From Mobula hypostoma (lineage: Eukaryota), in NCBI RefSeq assembly GCF_963921235.1, contig NC_086107.1:96226001-96290000 (forward strand): a stretch of DNA of 64,000 bases. Direction: 5' to 3'. Shown here piece by piece: positions 4,651 to 50,545 of this stretch (position 1 is its first letter; each line of letters begins with the position of its first letter). Both the position numbers and the translations under genes were made by a program. Below the pieces are notes generated by a model that ran no database searches, had not been told where the DNA came from, and saw only the letters and a program-made list of their open reading frames with translations.

Positions 4651-4660
4651 GAGACCTACA

Positions 4661-8411: not shown

Positions 8412-8424
8412 CCCCTTCTGGGGA

Positions 8425-10477: not shown

Positions 10478-10625
10478 AGTGCACCGTTCCCAGAGGCACT
10501 GCAATACCAGGTTGATGCGTGGAGTGGACGGAGCAAGCCCCTATTCCATCTCCCTGTTCCAAAAATCAATTTAATATCTGGTCCCCAGATAAGGGATGTA
10601 TCAGATATATACTGATAAGAACAGA
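10478..10625 (-). ncRNA. RNU2: U2 snRNA gene, nt 39 to 3' end (3' half of the gene whose 5' half is at 50494-50545)
   Basis: Reverse complement of 8263-8411 with a few substitutions. Flanked by the poly(T) run 10626-10632, which is the element poly(A) on the - strand. Confidence 0.93.
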
Positions 10626-10782
10626 TTTTTTTGATTCTGCAGGGAGCGCTCATGAAGTCGCGTTCTTGACTCGCTCCATTACCTCTGAGTTTTTTTTCTC
10701 TATGGTCAGCTATACTTTAATTAACCATTAAGGCATCAACTCTTACAATACTTTGAATTAAACTGAATTCTCCGACAACTGG

Positions 10783-11682
10783 ATGGAACTTAGATCTGCT
10801 ATGTCTAAGAACGAGAAAGACGGCAAGGATGGTAAACCTCCGGTTAAACCGAAAGCTACGGATCTCCCTCCGACTGAATCACCGGTGACTTTGAAAGCGA
10901 TAGCGGAGTTAATTCAGAGGGAAATTTCAACCTCTGTTAGGGAGATGATTCGCGCGGAAATTGCAGGCCCTGTTAAAGACCTGATTCATACGGAAATCTC
11001 AACTAATTTCCAGAAAATTGCCGCTTTAATTGATAAGATGCAAACATGTATTGCGGAACATCAGTCGGCTATATCTGATCTTCAAAAATTCGTGCAACAA
11101 AGTGAGCTTAAGATGGGGAAAATCGAAGAAACAATTAATGTAATGAAGAAGAAACTTGACTTTTTGACTTTTAAAAACTCTGACTTGGAATCTAGAATGC
11201 GACGGCAGAATTTACGAATGATTGGCATGAGGGAAGCCGCTGAAGGTAACAACCCCATGAAATATTTCTCCCAACTTTTAAAAGATGCATTCCCTATTGT
11301 ATTTCCTGACCAACCACCGCTACTGGATCGTGTTCACAGAATCCCATCATACTCGTCTAGGTCAGATAGACCTAGGCATGTTATCTTACGTTTTCATTAC
11401 TTTCAAGACAAGGAGAGATTGTTTCGATTCGCTCGATCTAAAGGTTTCATTGATTTTTCGGATCTTAAGTTCCGATTCGTGGAAGATTTCAGTAAACCAA
11501 TCTGGGACCAACGGGTCCATTACAGATCCGTGATGTCGGAATTCTATAAGATGGATTTAAGACCAGCGCTGCTGTACCCTGCACGTCTAAGGATTCGCAT
11601 GGCAGATGGAGCCCTTCGTTTTTTTGATTCTCCATCGGATGCCCAGAGTTATCTGGATCAACTTTCATCTCCAACATCTTAA
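10783..11682 (+). CDS. L1-A ORF1 (coiled coil plus RRM/CTD, L1 ORF1p type)
   Basis: DLESRMRRQNLRMIG, DRVHR, RPRHVILRF, EDFS, LYPARLRI are typical L1 ORF1p motifs. Confidence 0.85.
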   Translation: MELRSAMSKNEKDGKDGKPPVKPKATDLPPTESPVTLKAIAELIQREISTSVREMIRAEIAGPVKDLIHTEISTNFQKIAALIDKMQTCIAEHQSAISDLQKFVQQSELKMGKIEETINVMKKKLDFLTFKNSDLESRMRRQNLRMIGMREAAEGNNPMKYFSQLLKDAFPIVFPDQPPLLDRVHRIPSYSSRSDRPRHVILRFHYFQDKERLFRFARSKGFIDFSDLKFRFVEDFSKPIWDQRVHYRSVMSEFYKMDLRPALLYPARLRIRMADGALRFFDSPSDAQSYLDQLSSPTS

Positions 11683-12648
11683 TTGCTTTCTTTTTAATTT
11701 TCTCCGTCGATCGGAGGCTGTGAATTGGTTGGTTTTAACTTTTCTGTGCCCTATTTGGGCAGAAAAGTTTACTTTCGATTTCTTAATATGGCTACTAAAC
11801 TTTCTTTTTAACTGCGTCATTTCTTTCTTTTCCCAGGGGATTCTGGGTGGTTACTTCCCTTTTGTCATCTTACGTATTTCCTGTGCGGCCTTAAATTTTG
11901 TAGTTTTTGTTTAAATTTTATTCTGTTTTGCTTTTTATAATCACTTTATGTTAATAATCCTATTTTTTTTTGTTGCTGTGTCTATTCATGAGTTTGAGGT
12001 TTATTGTGGTTTTTTTTTAATATATATTTTCCGGCTTTTGTTCTGTTCTGTGTGTATTCTAATTGAGTTAACTTTTTTTTACTTATTTTTTTACTGTTTT
12101 ACAATTAGCTGATCCTTTTCATATTTATACCTTTTTTTTAGGGAGCGTATACCGGAAGTCATGGGGGTAGTTTTAGCGCTTGCTTCTTTCTGGCGGGTCT
12201 GCTTTAGATTTTGCCTTGGGGTCTTGGGCTGGGGGGTGGCAGGAGGGGCTTCACGTTTTAGTTTGTTTTTCTTTGGGCTATATACATTATTGAAGTACTG
12301 GTTGCGTCCTTTTCCCCGGTATCTTTTGTATGTTCTGTTTCCTCTCCGGGTTTGTGGGTCGCGCCTATTGTCAATCCTCCTTGTCGTGGGTTGACTTTAG
12401 GATTTATGGAGTCTATTATTAATTTTGTCTCCTGGAATACTAATGGTCTTAATCATCCTATTAAAAGAAAAAAAGTTTTTAAAGTGTTCCGGAGACTTAA
12501 AGCACAAATTTTATTTTTACAAGAGACCCATGTACGGAGGGGGGACAGACTACGTTTTTTCAAATTCTGGAAGGGCCAACAATTTCATTCGAACTCCAAT
12601 GCTAAGATTCGAGGCGTCTCTATTTTTATAGATTCCTCAGTTACTTTT

Positions 12649-15600
12649 ATAGAAACATAGAAACATAGAAAATAGGTGCAGGAGTAGGCCATTCGGCCCT
12701 TCGAGCCTGCACCGCCATTTATTATGATCATGGCTGATCATCCAACTCAGAACCCAGCCTTCCCTCCATACCCCCTGACCCCTGTAGCCACAAGGGCCAT
12801 ATCTAACTTCCTTTTAAACATAGCTAATGAACTGGCCTCAACAGTTTGCTGTGGCAGAGAATTCCACAGATTCACCACTCTCTGTGTGAAGAAGTTTTTC
12901 CTAACCTCGGTCCTAAAAGGCTTCCCCTCTATCCTCAAACTGTGACCCCTCGTTCTAGACCTCCCCAACATCGGGAACAATCTTCCTGCATCTAGCCTGT
13001 CCAATCCCTTTAGGATCTTATACGTTTCAATCAGATCCCCCCTCAATCTTCTAAATTCCAACGAGTACAAGCCCAGTTCATCCAGTCTTTCTTCATATGA
13101 AAGACCTGCCATCCCAGGAATCAATCTGGTGAACCTTCTTTGTACTCCCTCTATGGCAAAGATGTCTTTCCTCAGATTAGGGGACCAAAACTGCACACAA
13201 TACTCCAGGTGTGGTCTCACCAAGGCCTTGTACAACTGCAGTAGTACCTCCCTGCTCCTGTACTCGAATCCTCTCGCTATAAATGCCAGCATACCGTTCG
13301 CCTTTTTCACCGCCTGCTGTACCTGCATGCCCACTTTCAATGACTGGTGTATAATGACACCCAGGTCTCGTTGCACCTCCCCTTTTCCTAATCGGCCACC
13401 ATTCAGATAATAATCTGTTTTCCTATTTTTGCCACCAAAGTGGATAACTTCACATTTATCCACATTAAATTGCATCTGCCATGAGTTTGCCCACTCACCC
13501 AACCTATCCAAGTCACCCTGCATCCTCTTAGCATCCTCCTCACTGCTAACACTGCCACCCAGCTTCGTGTCATCCGCAAACTTGGAGATGCTGCATTTAA
13601 TTCCCTCATCCAAGTCATTAATATATATTGTAAACAACTGGGGTCCCAGCACTGAGCCTTGCGGTACCCCACTAGTCACCGCCTGCCATTCTGAAAAGGT
13701 CCCGTTTATTCCCACTCTTTGCTTCCTGTCTGCTAACCAATTCTCCACCCACACCAATACCTTACCCCCAATACCGTGTGCTTTAAGTTTGCACACTAAT
13801 CTCCTATGTGGGACCTTGTCAAAAGCCTTTTGAAAATCCAAATATACCACATCCACTGGTTCTCCCCTATCCACTCTACTAGTTACATCCTCAAAAAATT
13901 CTATGAGATTCGTCAGACATGATTTTCCTTTCACAAATCCATGCTGACTTTGTCCGATCATTTCACCGCTTTCCAAATGTGCTGTTATCACATCCTTGAT
14001 AACTGACTCCAGCAGTTTCCCCACCACCGACGTTAGGCTAACCGGCCTATAATTCCACGGTTTCTCTCTCCCTCCTTTTTTAAAAAGTGGGGTTACATTA
14101 GCCACCCTCCAATCCTCAGGAACTAGTCCAGAATCTAACGAGTTTTGAAAAATTATCACTAATGCATCCACTATTTCTTGGGCCACTTCCTTAAGCACTC
14201 TGGGATGCAGACCATCTGGCCCTGGGGATTTATCTGCCTTCAATCCCTTCAATTTACCTAACACCACTTCCCTACTAACATGTATTTCGCTCAGTTCCTC
14301 CATCTCACTGGACCCTCTGTCCCTTACTATTTCTGGAAGATTATTTATGTCCTCCTTAGTGAAGACAGAACCAAAGTAATTATTCAATTGGTCTGCCATG
14401 TCCTTGCTCCCCATAATCAATTCACCTGTTTCTGTTTGCAGGGGACCTACATTTGTCTTTATCAGTCTTTTCCTTTTTACATATCTATAAAAGCTTTTAC
14501 AGTCCGTTTTTATGATCTCTGCCAGTTTTCTCTCATAATCTTTTTTCCCCTTCCTAATTAAGCCCTTTGTCCTCCTCTGCTGAACTCTGAATTTCTCCCA
14601 GTCCTCAGGTGAGCCACTTTCTCTGGCTAATTTGTATGCTACTTCTTTGGAATTGATACTATCCCTAATTTCTCTTGTCAGCCACGGGTGCACTACCTTC
14701 CTTGATTTATTCTTTTGCCAAACTGGGATGAACAATTGTTGTAGTTCATCCATGCAACCTTTAAATGCCTGCCATTGCATATCCACCGTCAATCCTTGAA
14801 GTGTCATTTGCCAGTCTATCTTAGCTAATTCATGTCTCATACCTTCAAAGTTACCCCTCTTTAAGTTCAGAACCTTTGTTTCTGAATTAACTACGTCACT
14901 CTCCATGTTAATGAAGAATTCCACCATATTATGGTCACTCTTACCCAAGGGGCCTCTCACGACAAGATCGCTAATTAACCCTTCCTCATTGCTCAAAACC
15001 CAGTCCAGAATAGCCTGCTCTCTAGTCGGTTCCTCGACATGTTGGTTCAAAAAACCATCCCGCATACATTCCAAGAAATCCTCTTCCTCAGCACCTTTAC
15101 CAATTTGGTTCACCCAGTCTACATGTAGATTGAAGTCACCCATTATAACTGCTGTTCCTTTATTGCACACATTTCTAATTTCCTGTTTAATACCATCTCC
15201 GACCTCACTACTACTGTTAGGTGGCCTGTACACAACTCCCACCAGCGTCTTCTGCCCCTTAGTGTTACGCAGCTCTACCCATATCGATTCCACATCTTCC
15301 CGGCTTATGTCCTTCCTTTCTATTGCGTTAATCTCTTTTTTAACCAGCAACGCCACCCCACCTCCCCTTCCTTCGTGTCTATCCCTCCTGAATATTGAAT
15401 ATCCCTGAACGTTGAGCTCCCATCCCTGGTCACCCTGGAGCCATGTCTCTGTGATCCCAACTATATCATAATCATTAATAACAATCTGCACTTTCAATTC
15501 ATCCACCTTATTACGAATGCTCCTTGCATTGACACATAAAGCCTTCAGGCACTCTTTTACAACTCTCTTAGCCCTTTTTAATGCTTGCCCTGGATTTGTC

Positions 15601-15692
15601 GACCTGCCACTTTTACTTTTCCCCTTTGTACTTTTTGCTTCTACGCTCACTTTACACCCCTCTGTCTCTCTGCACTGGTTCCCATCCCTCTG
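12649..15692 (-). mobile_element. CR1-clade LINE, 5'-truncated, inserted in the L1-A endonuclease
   Basis: (TTTCTATG)n 8-bp terminal repeat at 12649-12672 and a CR1-type ORF2. Confidence 0.9.
12747..15650 (-). CDS. CR1 ORF2 (APE endonuclease plus RT), uninterrupted
   Basis: NARSI, ITETW, YRPP, GDFN, SDH, DFQKAFDKV, GVPQGSVLGP, FADD, TRGH. The true start may lie slightly inside this ORF. Confidence 0.88.
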   Translation of the reverse strand: MSVEAKSTKGKSKSGRSTNPGQALKRAKRVVKECLKALCVNARSIRNKVDELKVQIVINDYDIVGITETWLQGDQGWELNVQGYSIFRRDRHEGRGGGVALLVKKEINAIERKDISREDVESIWVELRNTKGQKTLVGVVYRPPNSSSEVGDGIKQEIRNVCNKGTAVIMGDFNLHVDWVNQIGKGAEEEDFLECMRDGFLNQHVEEPTREQAILDWVLSNEEGLISDLVVRGPLGKSDHNMVEFFINMESDVVNSETKVLNLKRGNFEGMRHELAKIDWQMTLQGLTVDMQWQAFKGCMDELQQLFIPVWQKNKSRKVVHPWLTREIRDSINSKEVAYKLARESGSPEDWEKFRVQQRRTKGLIRKGKKDYERKLAEIIKTDCKSFYRYVKRKRLIKTNVGPLQTETGELIMGSKDMADQLNNYFGSVFTKEDINNLPEIVRDRGSSEMEELSEIHVSREVVLGKLKGLKADKSPGPDGLHPRVLKEVAQEIVDALVIIFQNSLDSGLVPEDWRVANVTPLFKKGGREKPWNYRPVSLTSVVGKLLESVIKDVITAHLESGEMIGQSQHGFVKGKSCLTNLIEFFEDVTSRVDRGEPVDVVYLDFQKAFDKVPHRRLVCKLKAHGIGGKVLVWVENWLADRKQRVGINGTFSEWQAVTSGVPQGSVLGPQLFTIYINDLDEGIKCSISKFADDTKLGGSVSSEEDAKRMQGDLDRLGEWANSWQMQFNVDKCEVIHFGGKNRKTDYYLNGGRLGKGEVQRDLGVIIHQSLKVGMQVQQAVKKANGMLAFIARGFEYRSREVLLQLYKALVRPHLEYCVQFWSPNLRKDIFAIEGVQRRFTRLIPGMAGLSYEERLDELGLYSLEFRRLRGDLIETYKILKGLDRLDAGRLFPMLGRSRTRGHSLRIEGKPFRTEVRKNFFTQRVVNLWNSLPQQTVEASSLAMFKRKLDMALVATGVRGYGGKAGF

Positions 15693-18600
15693 GATATTAT
15701 CAGGATATTATCTCTGATCCGAATGGTAGATTTTTATTGGTTAGTGGTTTACTATTTAATAAAAAAGTAGTTTTGGTTAATGTTTATGCTCCTAATATGG
15801 ATTGTCCGGAATTTTATAAATCATTGTTTGATCAGTTTCCGAATTTGAACGAGTTTTCATTGATTTGGGGCGGAGATCTTAATACCTGTTTATCTCCAGC
15901 TTTGGACCGTTCGGCTCCTTTACGGACTTTACCTAATAAATCTGCAAATTTGATTAATTTTTTCCTTTCTGATTCTGGGTCGACGGATATTTGGCGTTTT
16001 CTGCATCCTCAGGAAAAAGATTTTTCCTTTTTTTCACATGTTCATCATTCCTATTCAAGAATTGATTATTTTTTTATTGATTCTCGTCTCATTCCTTCAG
16101 TGATTAAATGTGATTATGATTCTATAACCATTTCGGATCATGCTCCACTTAAGCTTTCTATTAAAATTATGGCCAATATACCAAACAATAGACAATGGCG
16201 TTTTAATTCGCTGTTGCTTCAGGACTCGGACTTTGTTAATTTTATGAATGAACAGATTGAGCTCTTTTTTATAATTAACCATACAGAAGATATTTCGGTT
16301 AACACTCTTTGGGACACTTTTAAAGCCTATATTCGGGGTCAGATTATTTCGTATTCCGTTGCTTTGAGGAAGAAACAGAAGCAGGAGGAGATGGCAATTG
16401 TGGACAAGATTAAAGAAATTGATAAGAAATATGTTATGGCTCCTTCTGAGGAGCTATATAAACAAAGAACTGAACTTCAAATGGAACACAGTTTACTACT
16501 CTCGTCCTCGATTGTAAACCAATTAAAGAAAACAAGAAGTGATTTTTATGTTCACAGTGATAAAATTGGCAAGCTGCTGGCTAATCAATTGAAATCTAAT
16601 TATGTTAAATCTCAAATCAATCAGATTTATAACCAAAATGATCGATTGATATTGGATCATGTGGGGATTAATCAAACCTTTTGTGATTTTTATTCTTCTT
16701 TATATCAATCAGAGTCTCCTCGAGATTCTAAATATATGAATGATTTTTTAGATAAGTTAGACTTTCCTCAGATTTCACAGGATATGTCTTCTTTATTAGA
16801 TACTTCCATTACAATGGATGAGATTAAGAATGTTATTTTTTCTGTGAATCTGGGGAAAGCTCCTGGCCCTGATGGGTTTACCGTTGAATTTTATAAATGT
16901 TTTGCTTCTTTATTGATTCCTTGGCTCTATAAGGTTTTTGAGGCTTCTTTGAAACTGGGTAAACTTCCGGAATCTTTTAATAGAGCATCAATTTCTTTAA
17001 TACTAAAGAAGGATAAAGACCCTGCTCAATGTGCATCTTATAGACCAATATCTTTATTAAATGTTGATTCTAAAGTTTTTTCTAAGTTATTAGCAAATAG
17101 ACTAGAAAAAGTACTTCCTTCTATTATTTCGGAAGACCAAACGGGTTTTATTAAAGGTCGTTACTCTTTTTATAATATTCGTACATTGTTAAATATCGTT
17201 TATACTCCCTCACAAAATGTTCCTGAGTGTGTTATTTCTTTAGATGCCGAGAAAGCTTTTGATAGAGTAGAATGGCCTTATTTATTTAAGGTGCTTGAAA
17301 TGTTTAATTTTAGCCTGAAATTTATATCCTGGATTAAACTGTTATATCACTCCCCTGTAGCCTCGGTTCGTACTAACTCTTTAAACTCACCTTTTTTTCC
17401 TCTCTTTCGTGGTACTCGACAAGGCTGTCCTCTTAGTCCCCTATTATTTGATATTGCATTAGAACCTCTTGCAATTGCTATTCGAGAATCTTCAAATATT
17501 ACTGGGATAACTCGGGGATTAAAGTCCCATAAATTATCACTCTATGCTGATGATTTACTTTTATATATTTCTAATCCTGAGAGATCTATTCCTGCTGTTT
17601 TAGAGTTATTAGCACAACTTGGTCTTTTCTCAGGTTATAAATTAAATCTTAGTAAGAGTGAACTTTTTCCGATTAATAAACATCTTCCCTTATATTATAA
17701 ATTTCCATTTAAATTGATTAATAATTACCTTTCATATCTTGGGATTAAAATTACTTGTAAACATAAAGATTTATTTAAGACTAACTTTTTACCATTAATA
17801 GACCATATTACTCAACTTTCATCTAAATGGTTTCCTTTATATTTAACTTTGATTGGTCGTATTAATGCAGTTAAGATGTTTTTTTTGCCAAAATTTTTAT
17901 ATGTGTTTCAGGCATTACCAATTTTCGTTCCTAAATCTTTTTTTGATAAAGTCGACTCTAAAATTTCTTCATTTATTTGGCAGAATAAGAATCCGAGACT
18001 GGGTAAAATACATTTACAGAAAGCTAAGAGAGATGGAGGTTTAGCATTACCTAACTTTAGATTTTATTATTGGGCTATTAATATTCGACATATGAAATTT
18101 TGGTTACTTGACCGGGATATACTATCTATTCCTAAATGGGTAGCATTGGAATTACAATCTGTTCAGGGTTATACACTTGGTTCTATTTTAGGTTCATCTC
18201 TTCCTTTTGATTCGAAACGCCTTAAGCAGGTCTCTAACCTGATCGTTAAATATGCTTTGCGTATTTGGTTTCAATTCAGAAAATTTTTTGATCTTAATCA
18301 ATTCGGGTTAGCGATTCCTATTTTAGGTAACATATTTTTTCCTCCCTCTTTTACGGATCGCGCTTTTCAAACTTGGAAGACTAAGGGTATTTTACGGTTT
18401 TTGGATTTATTTTTAGATGGTTCCCTTATGTCTTTTGAACAATTATCTAATAAATATAACCTATCAAGAATACATTTTTTTAGATATTTACAAGTTAGAA
18501 ATTTTCTAAGTACTATACTTCCTTCCTTTCCAATGCTTCCTCCTATATATATTTTAGATTCGATAATTAACCTTAATCCATGTCAGAAAGGTGCATCGGC

Positions 18601-19590
18601 TATGATTTATAATATTATTATGAAACTCAGGAAAGCTCCATTTGATAAGATTAGGGTAGATTGGGAACAGGAATTGGGGCTTACCATTTCTGTGGATGAT
18701 TGGGGGCAGATTTTACAATTAGTTAATACTTCCTCTATTTGTGCTAAACATTCCCTAATTCAATTTAAAGTGGTGCATAGAGCACATATGTCCAAAGATA
18801 AGTTAGCGCGTTTTTACTCGCATATTAATCCTTTCTGTGATAGATGTTCGGGGCAGATAGCCTCTTTAACTCATATGTTTTAGTCTTGCCCTACTTTGGA
18901 AACTTTTTGGAGAGATATTTTCAATATTATTTCTAAGGTATTAAATATAGATATCTCTCCTCACCCTATTACTGCTATCTTTGGACTACCTAAAATTTCT
19001 AGTAATCTTTCCCCTTCAGCCCGTAGAATGATTGCATTTCTTACTTTAATGGCGAAAAGATGTATTTTACAACATTGGAAAGAGCTTAATGCTCCAACTA
19101 CCTTTTTTTGGTTTTCTCAGACGATTTTATGTTTGAATCTGGAGAAAATTAGAAGTAACCTTTATGATTCTTCATTTAAATTTGAACAGATTTGGGGACC
19201 TTTTATTTGATATTTTCATTTAATGTAATATTTACCCTTCTTGTTTTTTTTTTCACTGTTTTAATGGAGGTCGGGATTGAGGACGTGATTTTAAGTTTAA
19301 CTCTGTTTGGTTTCAAGTTAGCCCATTGCTTTGCTTTGCTTTTAGTTAGTTGCACGGTGGGTTTTTTTTTTGGGGTTTTTTTTTCTTTTTTTCCATTGAT
19401 ATATATAAAATTTAGTATACTATTATGTTATCTTGGTTTCTTATGCTTAAATTACATTGTTTGTAGTATTTTCTTTTTGGTATTGTTATCTTTTGGAATT
19501 TTATTATACTTTAACATTGTATTAATGTTTATATGGCTTACCTTTTTTGTATACTTACTCAATAAAAAGATTTAAAAAGAAAGGAAAGAA

Positions 19591-24664: not shown

Positions 24665-24669
24665 ACAGA

Positions 24670-29813: not shown

Positions 29814-29827
29814 CTGATAAGAACAGA
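29814..29827 (-). repeat. U2 nt 39-52 fragment (TCTGTTCTTATCAG), target-site duplication between array units
   Basis: Identical copies at 34974-34987, 40135-40148 and 45296-45309. Confidence 0.85.
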
Positions 29828-34973: not shown

Positions 34974-34987
34974 CTGATAAGAACAGA

Positions 34988-37900: not shown

Positions 37901-40134
37901 AGTGACAGGTGGCTCTCAGAAGGCAGTGGTCAGAGAAGAACACCGGCGTGACGTCGGTGGACCTGACCGTGAGGGACTCAAACAGGAAGAGGAAGTCGAT
38001 CCGGGTGCGGGCTGAGCCGTCCGATCGTGTCCAGGTGGCTTGTGGCTGTGCTCCACCTGTTGGGGTGCCACAGGCGTCGCGCAGCTTGGCTGTCTTTACT
38101 ATTTCCCTCAGGAGTCTGGAGGTACTGTCCAGCCTGCCGGGTCCTCCAGCCGCATCAATGGTGCAGTTGAAGTCTCCGGCCAGAACGACCGGCTGGAGCG
38201 TCACCAGCAGCAGTGGGAGCTGCTCAAAGACGGCCAGCCGCTCGCTCCACACGGGGGAGGCGTACACATTGACCAGCCGGAGCGGAGTGCCCCGGTATTT
38301 GACGTCTGCTACCAGGAGGCGCCCCGCAACCACCTCTTTAACTTGGGTGATTGAGAAGTTGCCTCCCCGCAGCAGAATCCCCAGCCGGAAGCGCGACAAT
38401 CGTTGCCCCCCGACCACACCGACAAACCTTTTTTCCACCACCGTGCCCACCTCCGGTAGTTACGGAGGTGTGGTAGTCTGCACTCCTGGAGGAAGGTCAC
38501 GTCGGCTTTTACAGTGCCCAGGGACTGGAGCGTGCTGACGCATCGCCTGGTACTCTTCAAACTTTGCACGTTGCAGCACGCCAATTTAAGGTCTGCCATC
38601 TTTGTAAGTCCTTTATTTCGGCTGCTCTCCGTCCTCTTCCTTCCAGTCCTGAGCCTTCCTTCCCACCGCCTTTGTGAAGTTTTCCACCTCCTGTGGGCTC
38701 AGGTACTGCTGGTAGTACTCCCCCGGGTGTGGCAGTTCTGGTTCTGACTTCCTGGGCTGCATCCACTTCAGGCTGCTGTATGCCAGCCGTGGCTCTGCTC
38801 CGGGATTCCTGGAGCTGTGTGTCTCTGCTGCTCTCCGCCTCCTGTACCTGGGGGGTGGCCAGCAGACTTTCTCCCCTCTCTCTCCTCCCCTCCGCCTGTT
38901 CTGGCAGCCGCTTCTTCCGCCGGGGCTGCTGGCCTCCCCCAACTCCTTCCTCCTCTGAAGAGGACAGGGTACCAGAGGCTGTGTGGTTCCCTGCCCTTTT
39001 CTTGTAATCCTCTGCCTTCTGTCACTTGGCCGCGGCCTTTTGGGTCTTTTTACGTTTCACGACCTTCCATTCAGTTTCCACCTCAGCTCTCCCCTCCTCC
39101 ATGGACTCCTGCTTGTCGTTTGCCTGGTCCTGGGGGGTCTGCAGCGGGGTGGCAGGTCTTGGGGTGCTTGCACCTTCCTCCCTGGTTTCATCGTCCGTCC
39201 TGTCGGGTGCCTCGTCTGCAGCGCTGGCGGGTACGTCCGAAACTGCCTGGGCCCTTTCAGTGCCAGCACCTTCCCTGGTCGCCTGTGCGTAGGTGCCCCC
39301 ATGCCTCGGGTAGTCTCTGTACAGGTTGCCAGCCTGTCCGCAAAGGTTGCAGGACTTGGCCTGCGTGCAGTCTTTGGTCAGGTGGCCTTCAGTTTTACAG
39401 TTCTTGCACATCAACACCCTGCAGTGGGCTGCGATGTGCCCTGCCTTGCCGCAGTTTCGGCACACCCTGGATTGCCCCGCGTACACCGTGTACCCTCGGT
39501 TCCCTCTGCTGGCGAAGACGGAGGGGGGCTGGATGACGCCGCCGTTGGAATCCAACCTCAGCTTCACCTTGACCTGCTGTTTGCTGGTCCAGATTCCCAG
39601 TCCGTCCTTCACGTCCGCTGGTGTTCCTACACTCTCCACATACCGAGCGAGGAATGGAAGGACGTCCACCACTGGCACGTACAGGTTGAACATCTGGAGC
39701 ATGATTGTCCGTTCCTGCTGGGTTGCCGTTGTAAAGAGGGCCTGTGCTTTCAGCAGAGACAGCGGCGCCTCTGTCCCCTTCAGCTGAAGCTGCTGATACA
39801 GCTTCTGCCACCCTGCAGCCTGCCGGAAAGTGACATCGAAGAAACCTGCGAAATCCTGGACACAGTTGATGACGTTGGGCATAAATCCACAGCATTCCAT
39901 CAAGACCTTCCGGATGACGGTCTCTCGGGTGATGCTGGTGCCCCCGTTCCGGTCTCGCACTGTCAGCCTGACAGTGTTCTTGATACCCGGGCCTCGAGCC
40001 GATGCACTGCTCGCTGCTGCCATCTTCTTCTTCCTCACTGCTGTCGTCGCTGGTATGGGGTGTTAGATTGGAGGCCAATCAGCATTAGCATCCACCCCTG
40101 CGTCAGCACGAACTCTTCTCCTCCGCCTTCTGGT
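34988..40134 (-). mobile_element. Keno-type Tx1 copy K5 (decayed)
   Basis: 5161-bp period. Stops at 35561, 36296 and 39022. Confidence 0.92.
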
Positions 40135-40148
40135 CTGATAAGAACAGA

Positions 40149-43100
40149 TTTTTTAAAATTTCAAAATATACTTTATTCAAAAATAAATATATACCATAAA
40201 CCATTCAATAACTTTTCATCCTCTACATACGTTTCCATTATAGTCAATACATATCCGTATTTATAGCCACCCACGTGGCACTCCAGTAGTTCAGCTTACC
40301 ATATCATTGTTGAGGGGTATAGTCTCCGCCCTCCGACCCCTCCCACTCCCACGGGTGGAGAAACCTATACTGTAGTCCTTCCCCACCGGGCCCTTGCGGT
40401 GGCTGCACCGAGTTTCAGTGCGTCCCTCAGCACGTACTCCTGCAGCCGAGAATGTGCCAGTCGGCAGCATTCTCCCACGGACATCTCCATGTGCTGGTAG
40501 ATCATCAAGTTTCGGGCCGACCAAAGAGCGTCTTTCACCGAGTTAATGATCTGCCAGCAGCACTGGATGTTTGTCTCTGTGTGCGTCCCCGGGAACAGCC
40601 CGTAGATCAGAGAGTCCTCTGTTACACAGCTGCTGGGGATAAAACGTGATACTAGCCCGTCCATCCTCCTCCACACCCTCTTTGCGAACTGGCAGTGTGC
40701 AAAGAGGTGGGTCACAGACTCCTACTCACTGCAGTCCTCCCGTGGGCAGTGGGGTGCGGAGACGACGTTCTGGGCGTACAGGAGGGCTCTGAGTGGGAAG
40801 GCCCATCTCACTGCCAGCCAGGCGAGGTCTTGGTGCCTGTTGGTGAGATCTGGCGATGAGGCATTTTGCCAGATGAACTGGACAGTCTGCTCAGGAAACC
40901 ACCCCACTGCGTCCATCAGGTCCTTCTCCTGCAATGCCTGCAGGACATTAAGTGCCGACCACTGCCTGATTGCCCTGTGGTCAAAGGCGTTCTCCTGGAA
41001 GAACTTTGCTACGTAGGGCAGGTATGCCGGCAACGACCAGCTGACTGGGGTGTTGCACGGGAGGGGGGCCAGACCCATCCTTCGTAGCCAGGGCGACAGG
41101 TAGAACCTGGGCACATAGTGGTACTTGATGCCCACATACCTGGGTTCTCCACACAACCTGATGCAGCCACTTATGAAGCTGGCTATCAGGGTGAGGGCGA
41201 CATTGGGGACGTTCTTGCCCCCGTTGTCCAGGGACTTCTGCATGACGGTCCGTCTCACCCGCTCCATCTTGGATCTCCAGACGAATCTGAAGGGAGCCCC
41301 GGTGATTTCCGAGCTGTAGGAGCGGGGGACAGGCCAGACCTGCGCCAAGTACAGCAGCCCTGAGAGCACCTCACACCTGATGACCAGGTTCTTGCCCGTT
41401 ATTGACAGGGGGCGCCCTCCCCACAGTCCCAGTTTCTGTATTAACTTGGCAGTCCGTTACTGCCAGTTCTTGTTGATCGCCTCAGCCCCTCCGAACCAGA
41501 TCCCCAACACCTTCACGTGGTCAGACCTGATGGTGAAGGGGATGCTGGATCGGTTGGGCCAGTTGCCGAAGAGCATGGCTTCGCTCTTCGTGCAGTTGAC
41601 CCTGGCCCCCGACGCCAGTTTGAACTGTTCGCAGGTGCCAATCAACCTGCGAACTGACCTCGGATCAGAGCAGAAGACGGTGACGTCGTCCATGTACAGG
41701 GAGGTTTTCACTTGGGTCCCTCCACTGCCTGGCAGCATCACCCCTCTTATGCCCTCATCCCTCCTGGTGTTTTCCGCAAAGGGTTCGATGCAGCAGACAA
41801 ACAAGACAGGGGAGAGGGGACAGCCCTGCCTGACTCCCGACCTGATGGAGAAGCTGTCTGTTTCCCATCCATTGACCTGGACTGCACTACGGATGTCTGT
41901 GTAGAGCAGTCTAATCCAATTCTGGATTCCCTCCCCAAATCCCATTTTGGAAAGCACGTCCGCCATGTACGTGTGCGATATCCTGTCGAAGGCTTTCTCC
42001 TGGTCCAAGCTCACCAGGCAGGCATTCACCCCCCTGTCCTGCACGTAGGCGATGGTGTCCCTCAGCAGTGCGAGGCTGCCTGAGATCTTCCTGTCCGGTA
42101 CAGCACAGGTTTGGTCCGGGTGAATCACCTGTCCCAGAGCAGACTTGACCCTGTTGGCGATAGCCTTGGACAGGATCTTGTAGTCCAGATTCAGGAGAGA
42201 GATGGGTCTCCAATTTCTAATGTCCTCCCTTTCCCCCTTCTGCTTGTAGATGAGGGTGATGATGCCCTTCCTCATGGACTCTGACATACTGCCGGCCAGA
42301 AGCATAGCATTGTACACTTCCAGCAGGTCTGGGCCCATCCAGTTCCACAGAGCCGAGTACAACTCAGCCGGTAAGCCGTCGCTTCCGGGAGTCCTACCCG
42401 ACCCAAAGGAACGGATGGAGCCTGTCAGCTCGTCCAGGGTCAGTGGCTGATCCAGACTCTCCCGTTTGCCGTCATCTAAGACCTGCGTGATAGACGACAG
42501 GAAGTTGCGGGAGGCTGTGGATTCTGTGGCCTTTTCGTCGTACAGACCGGCATAGAAGGACCTGCAGATCCTCAGAATGTCGGTCTGCGAGGATGTGACT
42601 GAGCCATCCTCTTCCTTAAGGTTGTGGATCACAGAGCTCCCCCTGTGCACCTTTTGGAAGAAGAAGCGTGAGCACGTCTCGTCCTGCTCCACGATTTGGA
42701 CCCTTGATCGGAAGATGATCTTGGAGGATTCGGGGGGAGGTGCTGGGCTTGCCGGCCCTTCACCTCTTGCAATTCCTCCCTGACATCCACCCGCTCCGAC
42801 TGCAGAAGGAGAAGTTGCTGCAACTCTGTCTGTAGTTTACGCAGTTTCCTCTGCTCCTGCCTTGCTTTCCGGATACCCTTGCAGATGAAGAACCTCCTAA
42901 TGTTCTCCTTGGTGGCTTCCCACCAGTGAACCGGGGAATCAAAGAAGGCTTTCAAGGTTCTCCAACCTATGGACTCTCTCTCTGTTCCTCGATGTTCTCT
43001 GGTTTCAGCAGCTATACGTTCAGCTTCCAAGTCCCCCTGCCTGCCTTCTGGTCCTCCCATAAGTGACAGGTGGCTCTCAGAAGGCAGTGGTCAGAGAAGA

Positions 43101-45295
43101 ACACCGGCGTGACGTCGGTGGACCTGACCGTGAGGGACTCAAACAGGAAGAGGAAGTCGATCCGGGTGCGGGCTGAGCCGTCCGATCGTGTCCAGGTGGC
43201 TTGTGGCTGTGCTCCACCTGTTGGGGTGCCACAGGCGTCGCGCAGCTTGGCTGTCTTTACTATTTCCCTCAGGAGTCTGGAGGTACTGTCCAGCCTGCCG
43301 GGTCCTCCAGCCGCATCAATGGTGCAGTTGAAGTCTCCGGCCAGAACGACCGGCTGGAGCGTCACCAGCAGCAGTGGGAGCTGCTCAAAGACGGCCAGCC
43401 GCTCGCTCCACACGGGGGAGGCGTACACATTGACCAGCCGGAGCGGAGTGCCCCGGTATTTGACGTCTGCTACCAGGAGGCGCCCCGCAACCACCTCTTT
43501 AACTTGGGTGATTGAGAAGTTGCCTCCCCGCAGCAGAATCCCCAGCCGGAAGCGCGACAATCGTTGCCCCCCGACCACACCGACAAACCTTTTTTCCACC
43601 ACCGTGCCCACCTCCGGTAGTTACGGAGGTGTGGTAGTCTGCACTCCTGGAGGAAGGTCACGTCGGCTTTTACAGTGCCCAGGGACTGGAGCGTGCTGAC
43701 GCATCGCCTGGTACTCTTCAAACTTTGCACGTTGCAGCACGCCAATTTAAGGTCTGCCATCTTTGTAAGTCCTTTATTTCGGCTGCTCTCCGTCCTCTTC
43801 CTTCCAGTCCTGAGCCTTCCTTCCCACCGCCTTTGTGAAGTTTTCCACCTCCTGTGGGCTCAGGTACTGCTGGTAGTACTCCCCCGGGTGTGGCAGTTCT
43901 GGTTCTGACTTCCTGGGCTGCATCCACTTCAGGCTGCTGTATGCCAGCCGTGGCTCTGCTCCGGGATTCCTGGAGCTGTGTGTCTCTGCTGCTCTCCGCC
44001 TCCTGTACCTGGGGGGTGGCCAGCAGACTTTCTCCCCTCTCTCTCCTCCCCTCCGCCTGTTCTGGCAGCCGCTTCTTCCGCCGGGGCTGCTGGCCTCCCC
44101 CAACTCCTTCCTCCTCTGAAGAGGACAGGGTACCAGAGGCTGTGTGGTTCCCTGCCCTTTTCTTGTAATCCTCTGCCTTCTGTCACTTGGCCGCGGCCTT
44201 TTGGGTCTTTTTACGTTTCACGACCTTCCATTCAGTTTCCACCTCAGCTCTCCCCTCCTCCATGGACTCCTGCTTGTCGTTTGCCTGGTCCTGGGGGGTC
44301 TGCAGCGGGGTGGCAGGTCTTGGGGTGCTTGCACCTTCCTCCCTGGTTTCATCGTCCGTCCTGTCGGGTGCCTCGTCTGCAGCGCTGGCGGGTACGTCCG
44401 AAACTGCCTGGGCCCTTTCAGTGCCAGCACCTTCCCTGGTCGCCTGTGCGTAGGTGCCCCCATGCCTCGGGTAGTCTCTGTACAGGTTGCCAGCCTGTCC
44501 GCAAAGGTTGCAGGACTTGGCCTGCGTGCAGTCTTTGGTCAGGTGGCCTTCAGTTTTACAGTTCTTGCACATCAACACCCTGCAGTGGGCTGCGATGTGC
44601 CCTGCCTTGCCGCAGTTTCGGCACACCCTGGATTGCCCCGCGTACACCGTGTACCCTCGGTTCCCTCTGCTGGCGAAGACGGAGGGGGGCTGGATGACGC
44701 CGCCGTTGGAATCCAACCTCAGCTTCACCTTGACCTGCTGTTTGCTGGTCCAGATTCCCAGTCCGTCCTTCACGTCCGCTGGTGTTCCTACACTCTCCAC
44801 ATACCGAGCGAGGAATGGAAGGACGTCCACCACTGGCACGTACAGGTTGAACATCTGGAGCATGATTGTCCGTTCCTGCTGGGTTGCCGTTGTAAAGAGG
44901 GCCTGTGCTTTCAGCAGAGACAGCGGCGCCTCTGTCCCCTTCAGCTGAAGCTGCTGATACAGCTTCTGCCACCCTGCAGCCTGCCGGAAAGTGACATCGA
45001 AGAAACCTGCGAAATCCTGGACACAGTTGATGACGTTGGGCATAAATCCACAGCATTCCATCAAGACCTTCCGGATGACGGTCTCTCGGGTGATGCTGGT
45101 GCCCCCGTTCCGGTCTCGCACTGTCAGCCTGACAGTGTTCTTGATACCCGGGCCTCGAGCCGATGCACTGCTCGCTGCTGCCATCTTCTTCTTCCTCACT
45201 GCTGTCGTCGCTGGTATGGGGTGTTAGATTGGAGGCCAATCAGCATTAGCATCCACCCCTGCGTCAGCACGAACTCTTCTCCTCCGCCTTCTGGT
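40149..45295 (-). mobile_element. Keno-type Tx1 copy K6 (decayed)
   Basis: 5161-bp period. Stops at 40722, 41457 and 44183. Confidence 0.92.
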
Positions 45296-45309
45296 CTGAT
45301 AAGAACAGA

Positions 45310-48300
45310 TTTTTTAAAATTTCAAAATATACTTTATTCAAAAATAAATATATACCATAAACCATTCAATAACTTTTCATCCTCTACATACGTTTCCATT
45401 ATAGTCAATACATATCCGTATTTATAGCCACCCACGTGGCACTCCAGTAGTTCAGCTTACCATATCATTGTTGAGGGGTATAGTCTCCGCCCTCCGACCC
45501 CTCCCACTCCCACGGGTGGAGAAACCTATACTGTAGTCCTTCCCCACCGGGCCCTTGCGGTGGCTGCACCGAGTTTCAGTGCGTCCCTCAGCACGTACTC
45601 CTGCAGCCGAGAATGTGCCAGTCGGCAGCATTCTCCCACGGACATCTCCATGTGCTGGTAGATCATCAAGTTTCGGGCCGACCAAAGAGCGTCTTTCACC
45701 GAGTTAATGATCTGCCAGCAGCACCGGATGTTTGTCTCTGTGTGCGTCCCCGGGAACAGCCCGTAGATCAGAGAGTCCTCTGTTACACAGCTGCTGGGGA
45801 TAAAACGTGATACTAGCCCGTCCATCCTCCTCCACACCCTCTTTGCGAACTGGCAGTGTGCAAAGAGGTGGGTCACAGACTCCTACTCACTGCAGTCCTC
45901 CCGTGGGCAGTGGGGTGCGGAGACGACGTTCTGGGCGTACAGGAGGGCTCTGAGTGGGAAGGCCCATCTCACTGCCAGCCAGGCGAGGTCTTGGTGCCTG
46001 TTGGTGAGATCTGGCGATGAGGCATTTTGCCAGATGAACTGGACAGTCTGCTCAGGAAACCACCCCACTGCGTCCATCAGGTCCTTCTCCTGCAATGCCT
46101 GCAGGACATTAAGTGCCGACCACTGCCTGATTGCCCTGTGGTCAAAGGCGTTCTCCTGGAAGAACTTTGCTACGTAGGGCAGGTATGCCGGCAACGACCA
46201 GCTGACTGGGGTGTTGCACGGGAGTGGGGCCAGACCCATCCTTCGTAGCCAGGGCGACAGGTAGAACCTGGGCACATAGTGGTACTTGATGCCCACATAC
46301 CTGGGTTCTCCACACAACCTGATGCAGCCACTTATGAAGCTGGCTATCAGGGTGAGGGCGACATTGGGGACGTTCTTGCCCCCGTTGTCCAGGGACTTCT
46401 GCATGACGGTCCGTCTCACCCGCTCCATCTTGGATCTCCAGACGAATCTGAAGGGAGCCCCGGTGATTTCCGAGCTGTAGGAGCGGGGGACAGGCCAGAC
46501 CTGCGCCAAGTACAGCAGCCCTGAGAGCACCTCACACCTGATGACCAGGTTCTTGCCCGTTATTGACAGGGGGCGCCCTCCCCACAGTCCCAGTTTCTGT
46601 ATTAACTTGGCAGTCCGTTACTGCCAGTTCTTGTTGATCGCCTCAGCCCCTCCGAACCAGATCCCCAACACCTTCACGTGGTCAGACCTGATGGTGAAGG
46701 GGATGCTGGATCGGTTGGGCCAGTTGCCGAAGAGCATGGCTTCGCTCTTCGTGCAGTTGACCCTGGCCCCCGACGCCAGTTTGAACTGTTCGCAGGTGCC
46801 AATCAACCTGCGAACTGACCTCGGATCAGAGCAGAAGACGGTGACGTCGTCCATGTACAGGGAGGTTTTCACTTGGGTCCCTCCACTGCCTGGCAGCATC
46901 ACCCCTCTTATGCCCTCATCCCTCCTGGTGTTTTCCGCAAAGGGTTCGATGCAGCAGACAAACAAGACAGGGGAGAGGGGACAGCCCTGCCTGACTCCCG
47001 ACCTGATGGAGAAGCTGTCTGTTTCCCATCCATTGACCTGGACTGCACTACGGATGTCTGTGTAGAGCAGTCTAATCCAATTCTGGATTCCCTCCCCAAA
47101 TCCCATTTTGGAAAGCACGTCCGCCATGTACGTGTGCGATATCCTGTCGAAGGCTTTCTCCTGGTCCAAGCTCACCAGGCAGGCATTCACCCCCCTGTCC
47201 TGCACGTAGGCGATGGTGTCCCTCAGCAGTGCGAGGCTGCCTGAGATCTTCCTGTCCGGTACAGCACAGGTTTGGTCCGGGTGAATCACCTGTCCCAGAG
47301 CAGACTTGACCCTGTTGGCGATAGCCTTGGACAGGATCTTGTAGTCCAGATTCAGGAGAGAGATGGGTCTCCAATTTCTAATGTCCTCCCTTTCCCCCTT
47401 CTGCTTGTAGATGAGGGTGATGATGCCCTTCCTCATGGACTCTGACATACTGCCGGCCAGAAGCATAGCATTGTACACTTCCAGCAGGTCTGGGCCCATC
47501 CAGTTCCACAGAGCCGAGTACAACTCAGCCGGTAAGCCGTCGCTTCCGGGAGTCCTACCCGACCCAAAGGAACGGATGGAGCCTGTCAGCTCGTCCAGGG
47601 TCAGTGGCTGATCCAGACTCTCCCGCTTGCCGTCATCTAAGACCTGCGTGATAGACGACAGGAAGTTGCGGGAGGCTGTGGATTCTGTGGCCTTTTCGTC
47701 GTACAGACCGGCATAGAAGGATCTGCAGATCCTCAGAATGTCGGTCTGCGAGGATGTGACTGAGCCATCCTCTTCCTTAAGGTTGTGGATCACAGAGCTC
47801 CCCCTGTGCACTTTTTGGAAGAAGAAGCGTGAGCACGTCTCGTCCTGCTCCACGATTTGGACCCTTGATCGAAAGATGATCTTGGAGGATTCGGGGGGAG
47901 GTGCTGGGCTTGCCGGCCCTTCACCTCTCGCAATTCCTCCCTGACATCCACCCGCTTCGACTGCAGAAGGAGAAGTTGCTGCAACTCTGTCTGTAGTTTA
48001 CGCAGTTTCCTCTGCTCCTGCCTTGCTTTCCGGATACCCTTGCAGATGAAGAACCTCCTAATGTTCTCCTTGGTGGCTTCCCACCAGTGAACCGGGGAAT
48101 CAAAGAAGGCTTTCAAGGTTCTCCAACCTATGGACTCTCTCTCTGTTCCTCGATGTTCTCTGGGTTCAGCAGCTTTACGTTCAGCTTCCAAGTCCCCCTG
48201 CCTGCCTTCTGGTCCTCCCATAAGTGTTAGGTGGCTCTCAGAAGGCAGTGGTCAGAGAAGAACACCAGCGTGACGTCGGTGGACCTGACTGTGAGGGACT

Positions 48301-50493
48301 CAAACAGGAAGAGGAAGTCGATCCGGGTGCGGGCTGAGCCGTCCGATCGTGTCCAGGTGGCTTGTGGCTGTGCTCCACCTGTTGGGGTGCCACAGGCGTC
48401 GCGCAGCTTGGCTGTCTTTACAGTTTCCATCAGGAGTCTGGAGGTACTGTCCAGCCTGCCGTCGGCGCTGCCGGGTCCTCCAGCCGCATCAATGGTGCAG
48501 TTGAATTCTCCGGCCAGAACGACCGGCTGGAGCGTCACAAGCAGCTGTGGGAGCTGCTCGAAGACGACCAGCCGCTCGCTCCACACGGGGGAGGCGTACA
48601 CGTTGATCAGCCGGAGCGGAGTGCCCCGGTATTTGACGTCTGCTACCAGGAGGCGCCCCGCAACCACCTCTTTAACTTGGGTGATTGAGAAGTTGCCTCC
48701 CCGCCGCAGAATCCCCAGCCGGAAGCGCGAGAATCGTTGCCCCCCGACCACACCGACAAACCTCTTTTCCACCACCGTGACCACCTCCGGTAGTTACAGA
48801 GGTGTGGCAGTCTGCACTCCTGGAGGAAGGTCACGTCGGCTTTTACAGTGCCCAGGTACTGGAGCGTGCTGACGCATCGCCTGGTACTCTTCAAACTTTG
48901 CACGTTGAAGCACGCCAATTTAAGGTCTGCCGCTTTGTAAGTCCTTTATTTCGGCTGCTCTCCGTCCTCTTCCTTCCAGTCCTGAGCCTTCCTTCCCACC
49001 GCCTTTGTGAAGTTTTCCACCTCCTGTGGGCTCAGGTACTGCTGGTAGTACTCCCCCGGGTGTGGTAGATCTGGTTCTGGGCCCGGGGGTTTGTTGACTT
49101 CCTGGGCTGCTTCCCCTTCAGGCTGCTGGGTGCCGGCCGTGGCTCTGCTCCCAGATTCCCGGAGCTGTGTGTGTCTGCTGCTCTCCGCCTCCTGTACCTG
49201 GGGGGGTGGCCAGCAGACTTTCTCCCCTCTCTCTCCTCCCCTTCGCCTGTTCTGCCAGCCGCTTCTTCCGCCGGGGCTGCTGGCCTCCCCCAACTCCTTC
49301 CTCCTCTGAAGAGGACAGGGTACCAGAGGCTGTGTGGTTCCCTGCCCTTTTCTTGCGTTGCTCCGCCTTCTGTCGCTTGGCCGATGCCTTTTGGGTCTTT
49401 TTGCGTTTCACGACCTTCCATTCCATTTCCACCTCAGCTCTTCCCTGCTCCATGGACTCCTGCTCGCCGTTTGCCTGGTCCTGGAGGGTCTGCAGCGGGG
49501 TGGCAGGTCTTGGGGTGGTTGCACCTTCCTCCCTGGTTTCGTTATCCGTCCTGTCGGGTGCCTCGTCTGCAGCGCTGGCGGGTACATCCGAAACTGCCTG
49601 GGCCCTTTCAGTGCCAGCACCTCCCCTGGTCGCCTGTGCGTAGATGCCCCCACGCCTGGGGCAGGCTCTGTACAGGTGGCCAGCATGTCAGCAAAGGTTG
49701 CAGGCCTTGGCCTGCGTGCAGTCTTTGGTCAGGTGGCCTTCGGTTTTATAGTACTTGCACATCACCACCCTGCACTGGGCTGCGATGTGCCCTGCCTTGC
49801 CGTAGTTTCAGCACAGCCTGGGTTGCCCCGTGTACACCATGTACCCTTGGTTCCCTCCGATGGCGAAGACGGAGGGGGTGGTGGATGACGCCACCGTTGG
49901 ATTCCAACCTCAGCTTCACCTTGACCTGCCGTTTGATGGTCCAGATTCCCAGTCCGTCCTTCACGTCTGCTGGTGTTCCTACGCTCTCCACATACCGAGC
50001 GAATAATGTAAGGACATCTACCACTGGCATGTGCAGGTTGAACATGTGCACCGTGATTGTCCGTTCCTGCTGGGTAGCCGTGGCAAAGAGGGCCTGTGCT
50101 TTCAACAGCGACAGCGGCACCTCTGTCCCCTTCAGCTGAAGCTGCTGGTACAGCTTCTGCCACCCTGCAGCCTGCCGGAAGGTGACATCGAAGAAACCTG
50201 CGAAATCCTGGATGCAGTAGATGTCGTCAGGCGTAAATCCACAGCATTCCATCAAGGCCTTCCGGATGAAGGTCTCCCGGGTGAAGCCAGTGCCCCTGTT
50301 CTGGTCTCGCACTGTCAACCTGACAGTGTTCTTGATACCCGAGCCTCGAGCCTCGAGCCGATGCACTGCTCGCTGCTGCCATCTTCTTCTTCCTCACTGC
50401 TGTCGTCGCTGGTATGGGGTGTTAGATTGGAGGCCAATCAGCATTAGGATCCACCCGTGCGTCAGCGCAAACTCTTCTCCTCCGTCTTCCGGT
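45310..50493 (-). mobile_element. Keno-type Tx1 copy K7 (decayed; 5'-most copy, joined to the U2 5' end)
   Basis: Stops at 45883 and 46618. The 5' half is distinct, with its own lesions such as a 7-bp duplication at ~50341-50359. Confidence 0.92.
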
Positions 50494-50545
50494 CTGGTAA
50501 GAATAGAAACTACACTTGATCTGAGCCAAAAGGCCGAGAAGCGAT
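50494..50545 (-). ncRNA. RNU2: U2 snRNA gene 5' end (nt 1-52)
   Basis: The minus strand reads ATCGCTTCTCGGCCTTTTGGCTCAGATCAAGTGTAGTTTCTATTCTTACCAG, 48/52 identical to vertebrate U2 nt 1-52. Confidence 0.93.

Follow-up and report, generated by a model that had tools for sequence, protein, structure and literature searches.

Two halves of a U2 snRNA gene separated by a tandem Keno array in the ray Mobula hypostoma, and U2 leaders on dispersed Keno copies

Two pieces of a U2 small nuclear RNA (snRNA) gene lie about 40 kb apart on the minus strand of a 64,000-nucleotide (nt) stretch of the Mobula hypostoma genome (contig NC_086107.1, 96226001-96290000; this whole stretch is the window, and positions below are window positions unless stated). 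The locus raises the question of whether these pieces are halves of one gene and, if they are, how the space between them was filled. The explanation that we consider probable as a whole is that an old inverted U2 unit was hit by Keno, a U2-specific long interspersed nuclear element (LINE), that the Keno copies grew into an array in place, that L1-like and CR1-like elements were inserted as well, and that RNA beginning at the U2 start site would have served the Keno family as its template.

The 5' half (50494..50545, minus strand) corresponds to U2 nt 1-52 by Rfam, exact string and alignment to the canonical unit of the U2 array, and the 3' half (10474..10625, minus strand) corresponds to U2 nt 39-191 by Rfam and exact string. 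Rfam (RF00004) gives three U2 matches in the window: 50545-50414 (minus strand), 10646-10474 (minus strand) and 8223-8415 (plus strand). The 3' half scores 99.5 bits and the 5' half 49.6 bits (gathering score 46); the match at 50545-50414 is U2 only in nt 1-52, and its remainder is a forced alignment into the Keno 5' untranslated region (UTR). The original prediction had placed the two pieces on the same strand, in the right order and with a 14-nt overlap, all of which is borne out by Rfam and exact strings; its coordinates stand for the 5' half (50545-50494) but not for the 3' end, which is at 10474, 4 nt beyond the predicted 10478. The substitutions that it listed in the 5' half (A23C, A38T, G42A and T49C) are also found in the alignment to the canonical U2 gene of the same genome. 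The overlap consists of U2 nt 39-52, which read TCTATTCTTACCAG in the 5' copy and TCTGTTCTTATCAG in the 3' copy. The split gene is disrupted, and U2 cannot be made from it. Because the 14-nt U2 target is present at every Keno junction in the genome, the overlap alone does not prove that the halves come from one gene.

Self-comparison, protein domains and the reading of junctions indicate that transposon DNA occupies the entire interval between the halves, in the form of five Keno copies, two L1-like elements and one CR1-like element, the same inventory as originally predicted. The Keno copies form a head-to-tail tandem array on the minus strand: A (45310..50493), B (40149..45295), C (34988..40134), D (29828..34973) and E (24670..29813). 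The spacers between them (45296..45309, 40135-40148, 34974-34987 and 29814-29827, all minus strand) are the 14-nt target, U2 nt 39-52, so that each internal junction reads from a Keno tail through TCTGTTCTTATCAG into the Keno 5' end, ACCAGAAGG. At one end of the array, U2 nt 1-52 joins Keno A at the identical nucleotide to the eight promoter-adjacent Keno copies of the contig; at the other, the poly(A) tail of E is followed by U2 nt 39-47 (24669-24661). Reading frames are broken in all five copies, including both open reading frames (ORF1 and ORF2) of A, the oldest.

Judged from their sequences, only the outer copies A and E are parental, and B, C and D are recombinants, not insertions. Pairwise divergence is 2.72% for A-B, 0.56% for B-C, 0.78% for C-D, 2.33% for D-E and 4.67% for A-E, and B, C and D mutually differ by 0.56-1.03%. 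At the 240 informative alignment sites where A and E differ, a model with a single switch from E to A leaves 6 exceptions for B, 15 for C and 14 for D, versus 95-111 exceptions for a switch of reverse polarity (A-5'/E-3'). All three are thus E-5'/A-3' hybrids, the switch lying between alignment columns 2775 and 2828 in B, between columns 3312 and 3384 in C (with patches), and in the same interval in D as in C. The 3' part of B differs from A at 2/2188 positions and its 5' part from E at 15/2859, and B, C and D carry both the 17-nt and 12-nt deletions of E and the premature ORF2 stop of A. The order A, E/A hybrid, E is therefore that of an unequal crossing-over product, with E and A as the partners on the two chromatids.

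Divergence between A and E is itself uneven: 7.2% over columns 0-1500, 2.0% in the middle and 5.6% beyond column 3500. Each of the two is 5-7% from the young Keno copy G (3146..8262, plus strand) over the whole length, and their centres were therefore homogenised at an earlier time. A and E may derive from two insertions, or may derive from one insertion and an ancient duplication.

The rest of the interval is a 14-kb block (10632-24660) between the tail of Keno E with U2 nt 39-47 and the U2 3' half, nt 39-191. It is enclosed by a 15-nt duplication, AAGAACAGATTTTTT (plus strand), at 10617..10631 on the left and 24661..24675 on the right, where it spans the tail of Keno E and U2 nt 39-47. Because this one duplication spans the boundary of Keno tail and U2, it ties the array to this particular U2 3' half. 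The first L1-like element, Y (plus strand), is in two parts: 10632..12650, with the 5' UTR, ORF1 and the start of ORF2, and 15695..19591, with ORF2 and an A-rich tail. Its ORF1 has a Transposase_22 domain (Pfam, 9.1e-09) and its ORF2 matches human L1 ORF2p (E 1.5e-165), which places it in the L1 clade. The CR1-like element X (12651..15694, minus strand) lies inside Y, has endonuclease and reverse transcriptase (RT) domains, is distant from human L1 ORF2p (2.7e-21) and ends 3' in TTTCTATG octamer repeats, a type of ending that we take to be typical of CR1; the label CR1-like is retained here. The second L1-like element, Z (19592..24660, plus strand), has an ORF2 split at 22038/22039; of the 40 non-self genomic matches to it, 32 start exactly at 19592, and Z is therefore full length for its family, with no ORF1 seen in its 920-nt 5' region. 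Y and Z belong to different families (72% nucleotide identity over ORF2). The A-rich tail of Y abuts the 5' end of Z (19560-19600) with no duplication between them, and the single 15-nt duplication encloses both; this would fit either one event with template switching or insertion of Z exactly at the tail of Y.

The original description of these insertions as nested holds for X inside Y but not for the Keno copies, which are tandem, with B, C and D recombinant by the 240-site test. To call the locus a sink overstates the number of events, for which we arrive at about two founding Keno copies, one or two L1 events and one CR1 event.

The surroundings of the two halves were compared with the canonical unit of the main U2 array, which lies directly upstream of the window and has at least 21 intact genes on the plus strand with a spacing of ~2.74 kb. 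Between this array and window position 8262 are six Keno-occupied plus-strand units holding nine copies. The third U2 match, a U2 3' half that the original prediction had not included (nt 39-191 at 8263..8415, plus strand; Rfam), belongs to the neighbouring Keno-occupied unit, in the orientation opposite to the split gene, and the rest of that unit extends to 10032. There the canonical unit breaks and resumes inverted, with position 595 of the plus-strand array unit meeting position 1044 of the inverted unit. The inverted DNA comprises canonical unit positions 1044-650 at 10032..10421 (minus strand), positions 1749-1538, containing the U2 3' half and its flank, at 10416..10626 (minus strand) and, on the far side of the transposons, positions 1552-1034, containing the U2 5' half and its upstream flank, at 50494..51024 (minus strand). 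Within these segments, 10416..10473 (minus strand) are 58 nt of U2 3' flank common to the canonical unit and to 8416-8473 (plus strand), and 50546..51024 (minus strand) hold the promoter region and further upstream flank of the inverted unit, equivalent to positions 1034-1500 of the canonical one. At 10416-10421, where the inverted U2 3' flank meets unit position 650, ~1.6 kb of the canonical unit is absent.

The flanks of both U2 halves match the canonical unit in inverted orientation with 92-96% identity, and apart from the two halves no U2 piece on the minus strand turned up in this region of the contig. We regard the split locus as probably an old inverted U2 unit at the distal edge of the main array. 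It would have survived because it is inverted at the array edge; the other occupied units hold only copies that are at most 0.5% diverged. Immediately before the 5' half, 174 nt (50546-50719) have no difference from the array unit (0/174), versus 4/52 changes in the U2 leader itself (Fisher p 0.0026) and 10/295 changes plus a 13-nt indel in the distal flank (p 0.016 versus the proximal 174 nt), and the 3' half with its flank has 8 differences in a 212-column alignment to the canonical unit. An identical 174-nt promoter beside a leader, distal flank and 3' half that are 3-8% diverged could reflect a conversion tract or promoter constraint.

These data most likely describe one U2 gene split by ~40 kb that is all transposon DNA, as originally predicted, and we hold a common origin of the two halves to be very probable. 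The chain between them is unbroken: the 5' half joins Keno A, spacers consisting of the target alone lead from A to E, and the duplication around the L1-like block links the tail of E to the 3' half. The inverted orientation, unusual here, is shared by both halves. Several points weigh against a single gene or against parts of its proposed history. The neighbourhood is rearranged, with the inversion junction at ~10032 and the gap of ~1.6 kb at 10416-10421 both within 600 bp of the 3' half; the Keno copies here have recombined, so some exchange of flanks may have occurred; and divergence from the array unit is uneven between the proximal promoter (0/174), the leader (4/52) and the 3' half with its flank (8 in 212 columns). 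A and E may be one insertion and an ancient duplication, as their central 2 kb (2.0%, versus 7.2% and 5.6% at the ends) would allow, and the copy number of a 5-kb tandem array with differences of 0.6-1% depends on the assembly.

The first three of these points, together with the 14-nt overlap that is common to all Keno junctions and hence not diagnostic, are what favours an origin of the halves from different U2 genes, joined by recombination between Keno copies or by the inversion. We consider such an origin improbable. A and E are separated by the 14-nt target alone, without a spacer or U2 halves, and an A-14 nt-E junction of this kind cannot arise by exchange between Keno copies of different units; the hybrids have the polarity of a duplication product (E-5'/A-3'), not of a deletion product; the duplication of the L1-like block leads from the tail of E to this 3' half; and this region of the contig yielded no U2 fragment on the minus strand beyond these two.

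A little less probable again is an assembly error, with near-identical 5-kb repeats expanded or mis-joined, as the source of the five copies or of some part of the 40-kb structure. The differences between B, C and D, merely 0.56-1.03%, are of the size at which this might happen, but each copy has private differences, the switch point shared by C and D is not that of B, all junctions are regular, and the unique L1/CR1 block anchors one side.

On the reading of a single split gene, the history of the locus would run as follows. First, Keno, which inserts at U2 nt 38/39 and duplicates nt 39-52, would have come to be present as A and E head to tail in one U2 gene with the 14-nt target between them; a second copy could have entered the target that was still there, or an early duplication could have doubled the first, and the two then diverged by ~5-7%. 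Second, unequal crossing-over of E with A would have placed an E-5'/A-3' hybrid between them, and further unequal exchange and conversion would have brought the number to five. Third, Y and Z would have landed at the junction of the E tail with U2 nt 39, making a single 15-nt duplication, and X would later have landed inside Y. That a U2 gene was split is in itself ordinary for a target-specific LINE. The interest of the locus is rather as a fossil of array growth, in which two parents and unequal crossing-over could give five copies without five insertions, and in having led to genome-wide evidence for a Keno template RNA that may begin at U2 nt 1.

This evidence comes from copies elsewhere in the genome. 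A pattern search found 42 Keno 5' ends genome-wide, and a reversed control pattern found 0. Fourteen of the 42 are on this contig, eight following a canonical promoter and U2 nt 1-52 and six following a Keno tail and the 14 nt; the remaining 28/42 are dispersed full-length copies on other contigs. In 28/28 dispersed copies, the element is preceded by a U2 leader ending at nt 52, the start of which is nt 1 in nine copies, nt 2-3 in six and nt 5-35 in thirteen. The flanks upstream of these leaders are unrelated to the U2 promoter. For 23 of these 28 copies the 3' end could be read (the tails of the remaining five are beyond the retrieved sequence), and U2 is the 3' flank in 0/23. In 12/23, a target-site duplication of 8-25 nt starts directly at the 5' edge of the leader; leader and element therefore entered as one unit, U2(x-52)-Keno-poly(A).

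The tree built on the initial 1.5 kb, with the 16 dispersed copies for which that length was available, is comb-like, with A and E basal and the dispersed copies from 7% to 0.4% distant from the active copy. The leader has therefore accompanied the Keno family through the whole of the history visible here. Descent of dispersed copies from A itself was considered on account of leader variants (A38T in L072, T49C in L030 and perhaps A23C in L029) and was dropped, as at most one of the variants is present in any copy and the tree does not place these copies with A.

The simplest reading is that the Keno template RNA would begin at the U2 start site of the occupied gene. Transcription from that site would give a polyadenylated U2(1-52)-Keno RNA, and this chimeric RNA would be the template for retrotransposition. 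At a U2 target the leader would match the target and the join would be seamless; elsewhere the leader would be carried along and the promoter would not. The original prediction had proposed that a U2(1-52)-Keno RNA was made from the split gene. The 28/28 leaders and the abutting duplications strongly support such an RNA for the family, though not for this locus. Read-through from the split gene would be antisense to both L1-like elements (both plus strand), as predicted, and sense to the CR1-like X.

As an alternative source of the dispersed leaders, reverse transcriptase might have switched templates onto U2 snRNA, or Keno might have inserted into U2 pseudogenes. Template-switch chimeras of snRNA and LINE are known for L1 (PMC4494074), and a clear duplication is missing in 11/23 copies. 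Both routes are very unlikely here, in that the leader ends at nt 52, the genomic Keno junction, in 28/28 copies and never continues into the U2 3' part expected from mature snRNA, none of the 23 readable 3' flanks is the U2 that insertion into a pseudogene would leave, and in 12/23 the duplication at the 5' edge of the leader encloses leader and element as one unit.

Some considerations tell against transcription from the U2 start site, which remains the reading that we favour. A clear duplication is missing in 11/23 dispersed copies, and the start site and promoter are deduced from DNA copies only. Promoters of the snRNA type work together with 3'-box processing and make long polyadenylated RNA only poorly, and how a 5.2-kb Keno RNA would escape snRNA 3' processing has no explanation. 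The stretch across the U2-Keno junction was found in eight sequencing runs from two studies, with no RNA run among those listed.

More tentatively, and with somewhat less than even confidence in the three proposals taken together, Keno may have no promoter of its own, every productive RNA being a capped U2(1-52)-Keno fusion of 5.2 kb with a normal poly(A) signal; the 52-nt leader may be a homology arm that makes on-target joins seamless; and off-target copies may be dead on arrival, having kept the leader and lost the promoter. A homology arm and dead off-target copies together would account for the persistence of target specificity. If transcription from the U2 start is real, a vertebrate snRNA-type promoter can give a long, polyadenylated and translated messenger RNA (mRNA), and Keno would be a natural test case for the escape of long mRNA from snRNA-type 3' processing. 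The U2 leader would in any genome be a simple marker separating retrotransposed off-target copies from on-target ones.

The intact form of the element is seen in the plus-strand units, where the family looks, from its sequences, to have been recently active. The nine copies in the six units are 99.5-100% identical to G, which has ORF1 (486 codons) and ORF2 (1155 codons) open. In a full-length young Keno, a 5' UTR of 105 nt precedes ORF1, which begins at nt 106 and has 475 codons counted from its ATG; ORF2 begins at nt 1499 and has 1152 codons, and AATAAA is found 14 nt before the A-run. The 5' junction in every occupied unit is U2 nt 52 followed by ACCAGAAGG. The 3' junctions are poly(A) followed by TCTGTTCTTATCAGTTTAAT, with one of the six reading TCTGTTTTTATCAG, and the corresponding junction at the old split locus is TCTGTTCTTATCAGTATAT. 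Nucleotides 55-69 of every Keno 5' UTR (50430-50455, minus strand, in A) form a perfect 6-bp hairpin, GATTGG-CCT-CCAATC, with a CCAAT motif on each strand, which the Rfam U2 model aligned to a U2 stem-loop; it may be a promoter element, an RNA element or chance.

Three of the six occupied plus-strand units hold one Keno copy and three hold two. The internal junctions of the double units are A21, the 14 nt and a copy truncated at position 2909; A18, the 14 nt and a full copy; and, between Keno F and G, A13, TCTGTTC and a copy lacking 28 nt. The 14 nt beside the on-target copy that is truncated point to staggered nicks at 38/39 and 52/53 as the source of the 14-nt duplication. Keno F is full length, begins upstream of the window directly after U2 nt 52 and has its 3' part at 1..3131 (plus strand); over these 3,131 nt it is 0.19% apart from G, which is 28 nt short at its 5' end and is joined to F by TCTGTTC only. 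The F/G junction was at first taken as proof that the downstream copy is the younger; this was dropped, since GTTC is a 4-nt microhomology and a later deletion of 32 nt explains the junction equally well. The poly(A) tail of the upstream copy is the longer in 3/3 pairs, which points weakly to a downstream copy that is not younger.

An off-target tandem was also observed (L027/L057, G000:C22, ~6554401-6561351). Beyond the tail and poly(A) of its first Keno come 9 nt of duplicated flank and then another Keno, preceded by a U2(12-52) leader; off target too, a resident copy can therefore receive a new insertion at its tail. Five independent retrotranspositions into the retained 14-nt target are nevertheless hardly credible for copies A to E. 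In their favour are the 3/6 young units with two copies, the differing 5' truncation points of two downstream copies and the second copy at the tail of the first in L027. Against them, B, C and D each combine A and E sequence with a single switch point, share both the ORF2 stop of A and the 17-nt and 12-nt deletions of E, and are only 0.1-0.5% from the matching parent over the copied part.

Beyond the split locus, a further Keno-occupied U2 unit with two tandem copies is found at contig positions 96426760 and 96431945, ~137 kb past the window end. Since this unit is flanked by the canonical promoter, the U2 locus extends beyond the transposon-rich stretch. The end of the window (53737-63140) holds open reading frames typical of long terminal repeat (LTR) retrotransposons together with further RT fragments, for which Pfam gives SCAN, a CCHC knuckle and an integrase zinc domain at 53737-55395 (plus strand), RT at 56136-58439 (minus strand), RT fragments at 59791-61380 (plus strand) and RNase H at 62225-62974 (plus strand). 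A 271-codon open frame in the spacer of the plus-strand U2 unit (9019-9834, plus strand) has no Pfam match and is probably a chance frame in GC-rich DNA.

The ray element is an additional member of the known Keno family. It occupies the U2 site with the 3' flank TCTGTTCTTATCAGTTTAAT, and its ORF2 has an endonuclease of the apurinic/apyrimidinic (APE) type and an RT (Pfam: Exo_endo_phos 4.6e-14, RVT_1 2.1e-38, zf-RVT 5.6e-10); ORF1 has two RNA-binding domains and CCHC knuckles. In this L1-related LINE, ORF2 matches human L1 ORF2p with 2.4e-83, between the L1-like Y (1.5e-165) and the CR1-like X (2.7e-21). The nearest database proteins are amphibian, with 46% identity and the same domain order; none of these is named Tx1 or Keno, and the assignment rests on target and domains. 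Since the nearest proteins are only 46% identical, the ray element represents a distinct family. Its target specificity is not strict: 14/42 full-length 5' ends are in the U2 region of the contig and 28/42 elsewhere, which we interpret as a preference for U2. Survival bias inflates the off-target share, because copies in the array turn over, all of those present being young except for the relic at the split locus.

Keno has been described as an APE-type, Tx1-clade, U2-specific LINE of frogs, fish, lancelet and hydra (PMC4640811, PMC4494074), and the 3' target quoted for it, TCTGTTCTTATCAGTTTAAT (PMC6136364), matches the junctions here. KenoDr1, KenoFr1 and Keno-1_SSa share the insertion point in U2 with the ray element, whose domain content, including a zinc-binding domain at the C-terminus of ORF2, also fits Keno; growth of a tandem array in place through unequal crossing-over and U2(1-52) leaders on all dispersed copies are, in contrast, not mentioned in the accessible portions of those papers. 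The family is thus known, and the proposal of a template starting at U2 was not found in print: the literature searched, to which the founding description of Keno did not belong, gave no statement of a Keno U2 leader or of use of the U2 promoter, and as far as these searches reach, a promoterless life style dependent on the U2 start is undescribed for Keno or any other element of the Tx1 clade. Utopia-1_NVit of one wasp is 'occasionally inserted in tandem in U2 genes' (PMC4640811); Utopia uses the same U2 site but is unrelated and has a restriction-like endonuclease, unlike the APE-type ray element. Retrocopies carrying upstream host sequence through 5' transduction by upstream promoters are also known, for example the SVA-MAST2 subfamily and the 5' extensions of SINEU-2 (PMC4494074). 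Those leaders come from single source loci, whereas the same leader is found on 28/28 dispersed full-length Keno copies read here, because the source loci would always be U2 genes.

The closest parallel is with R2 and R1, which, like Keno, are target-specific LINEs in a tandem gene array, that of the ribosomal DNA (rDNA). R2 and R1 turn over rapidly inside the array and old copies survive at its edges. R2 has a restriction-like endonuclease and is transcribed by RNA polymerase I (Pol I), and the upstream rRNA is removed from its transcripts by a self-cleaving ribozyme. At the U2-Keno junction, Rfam found no known ribozyme at E<=1, only U2 and one hit at chance level. R2 depends on the promoter of its target gene through co-transcription, as cited in PMC4494074. 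Unlike in R2, the start site in the ray would be that of an RNA polymerase II (Pol II) snRNA gene, and the leader is retained. Should transcripts confirm such a start, Keno would be the Pol II snRNA-gene counterpart of R2 in the rDNA.

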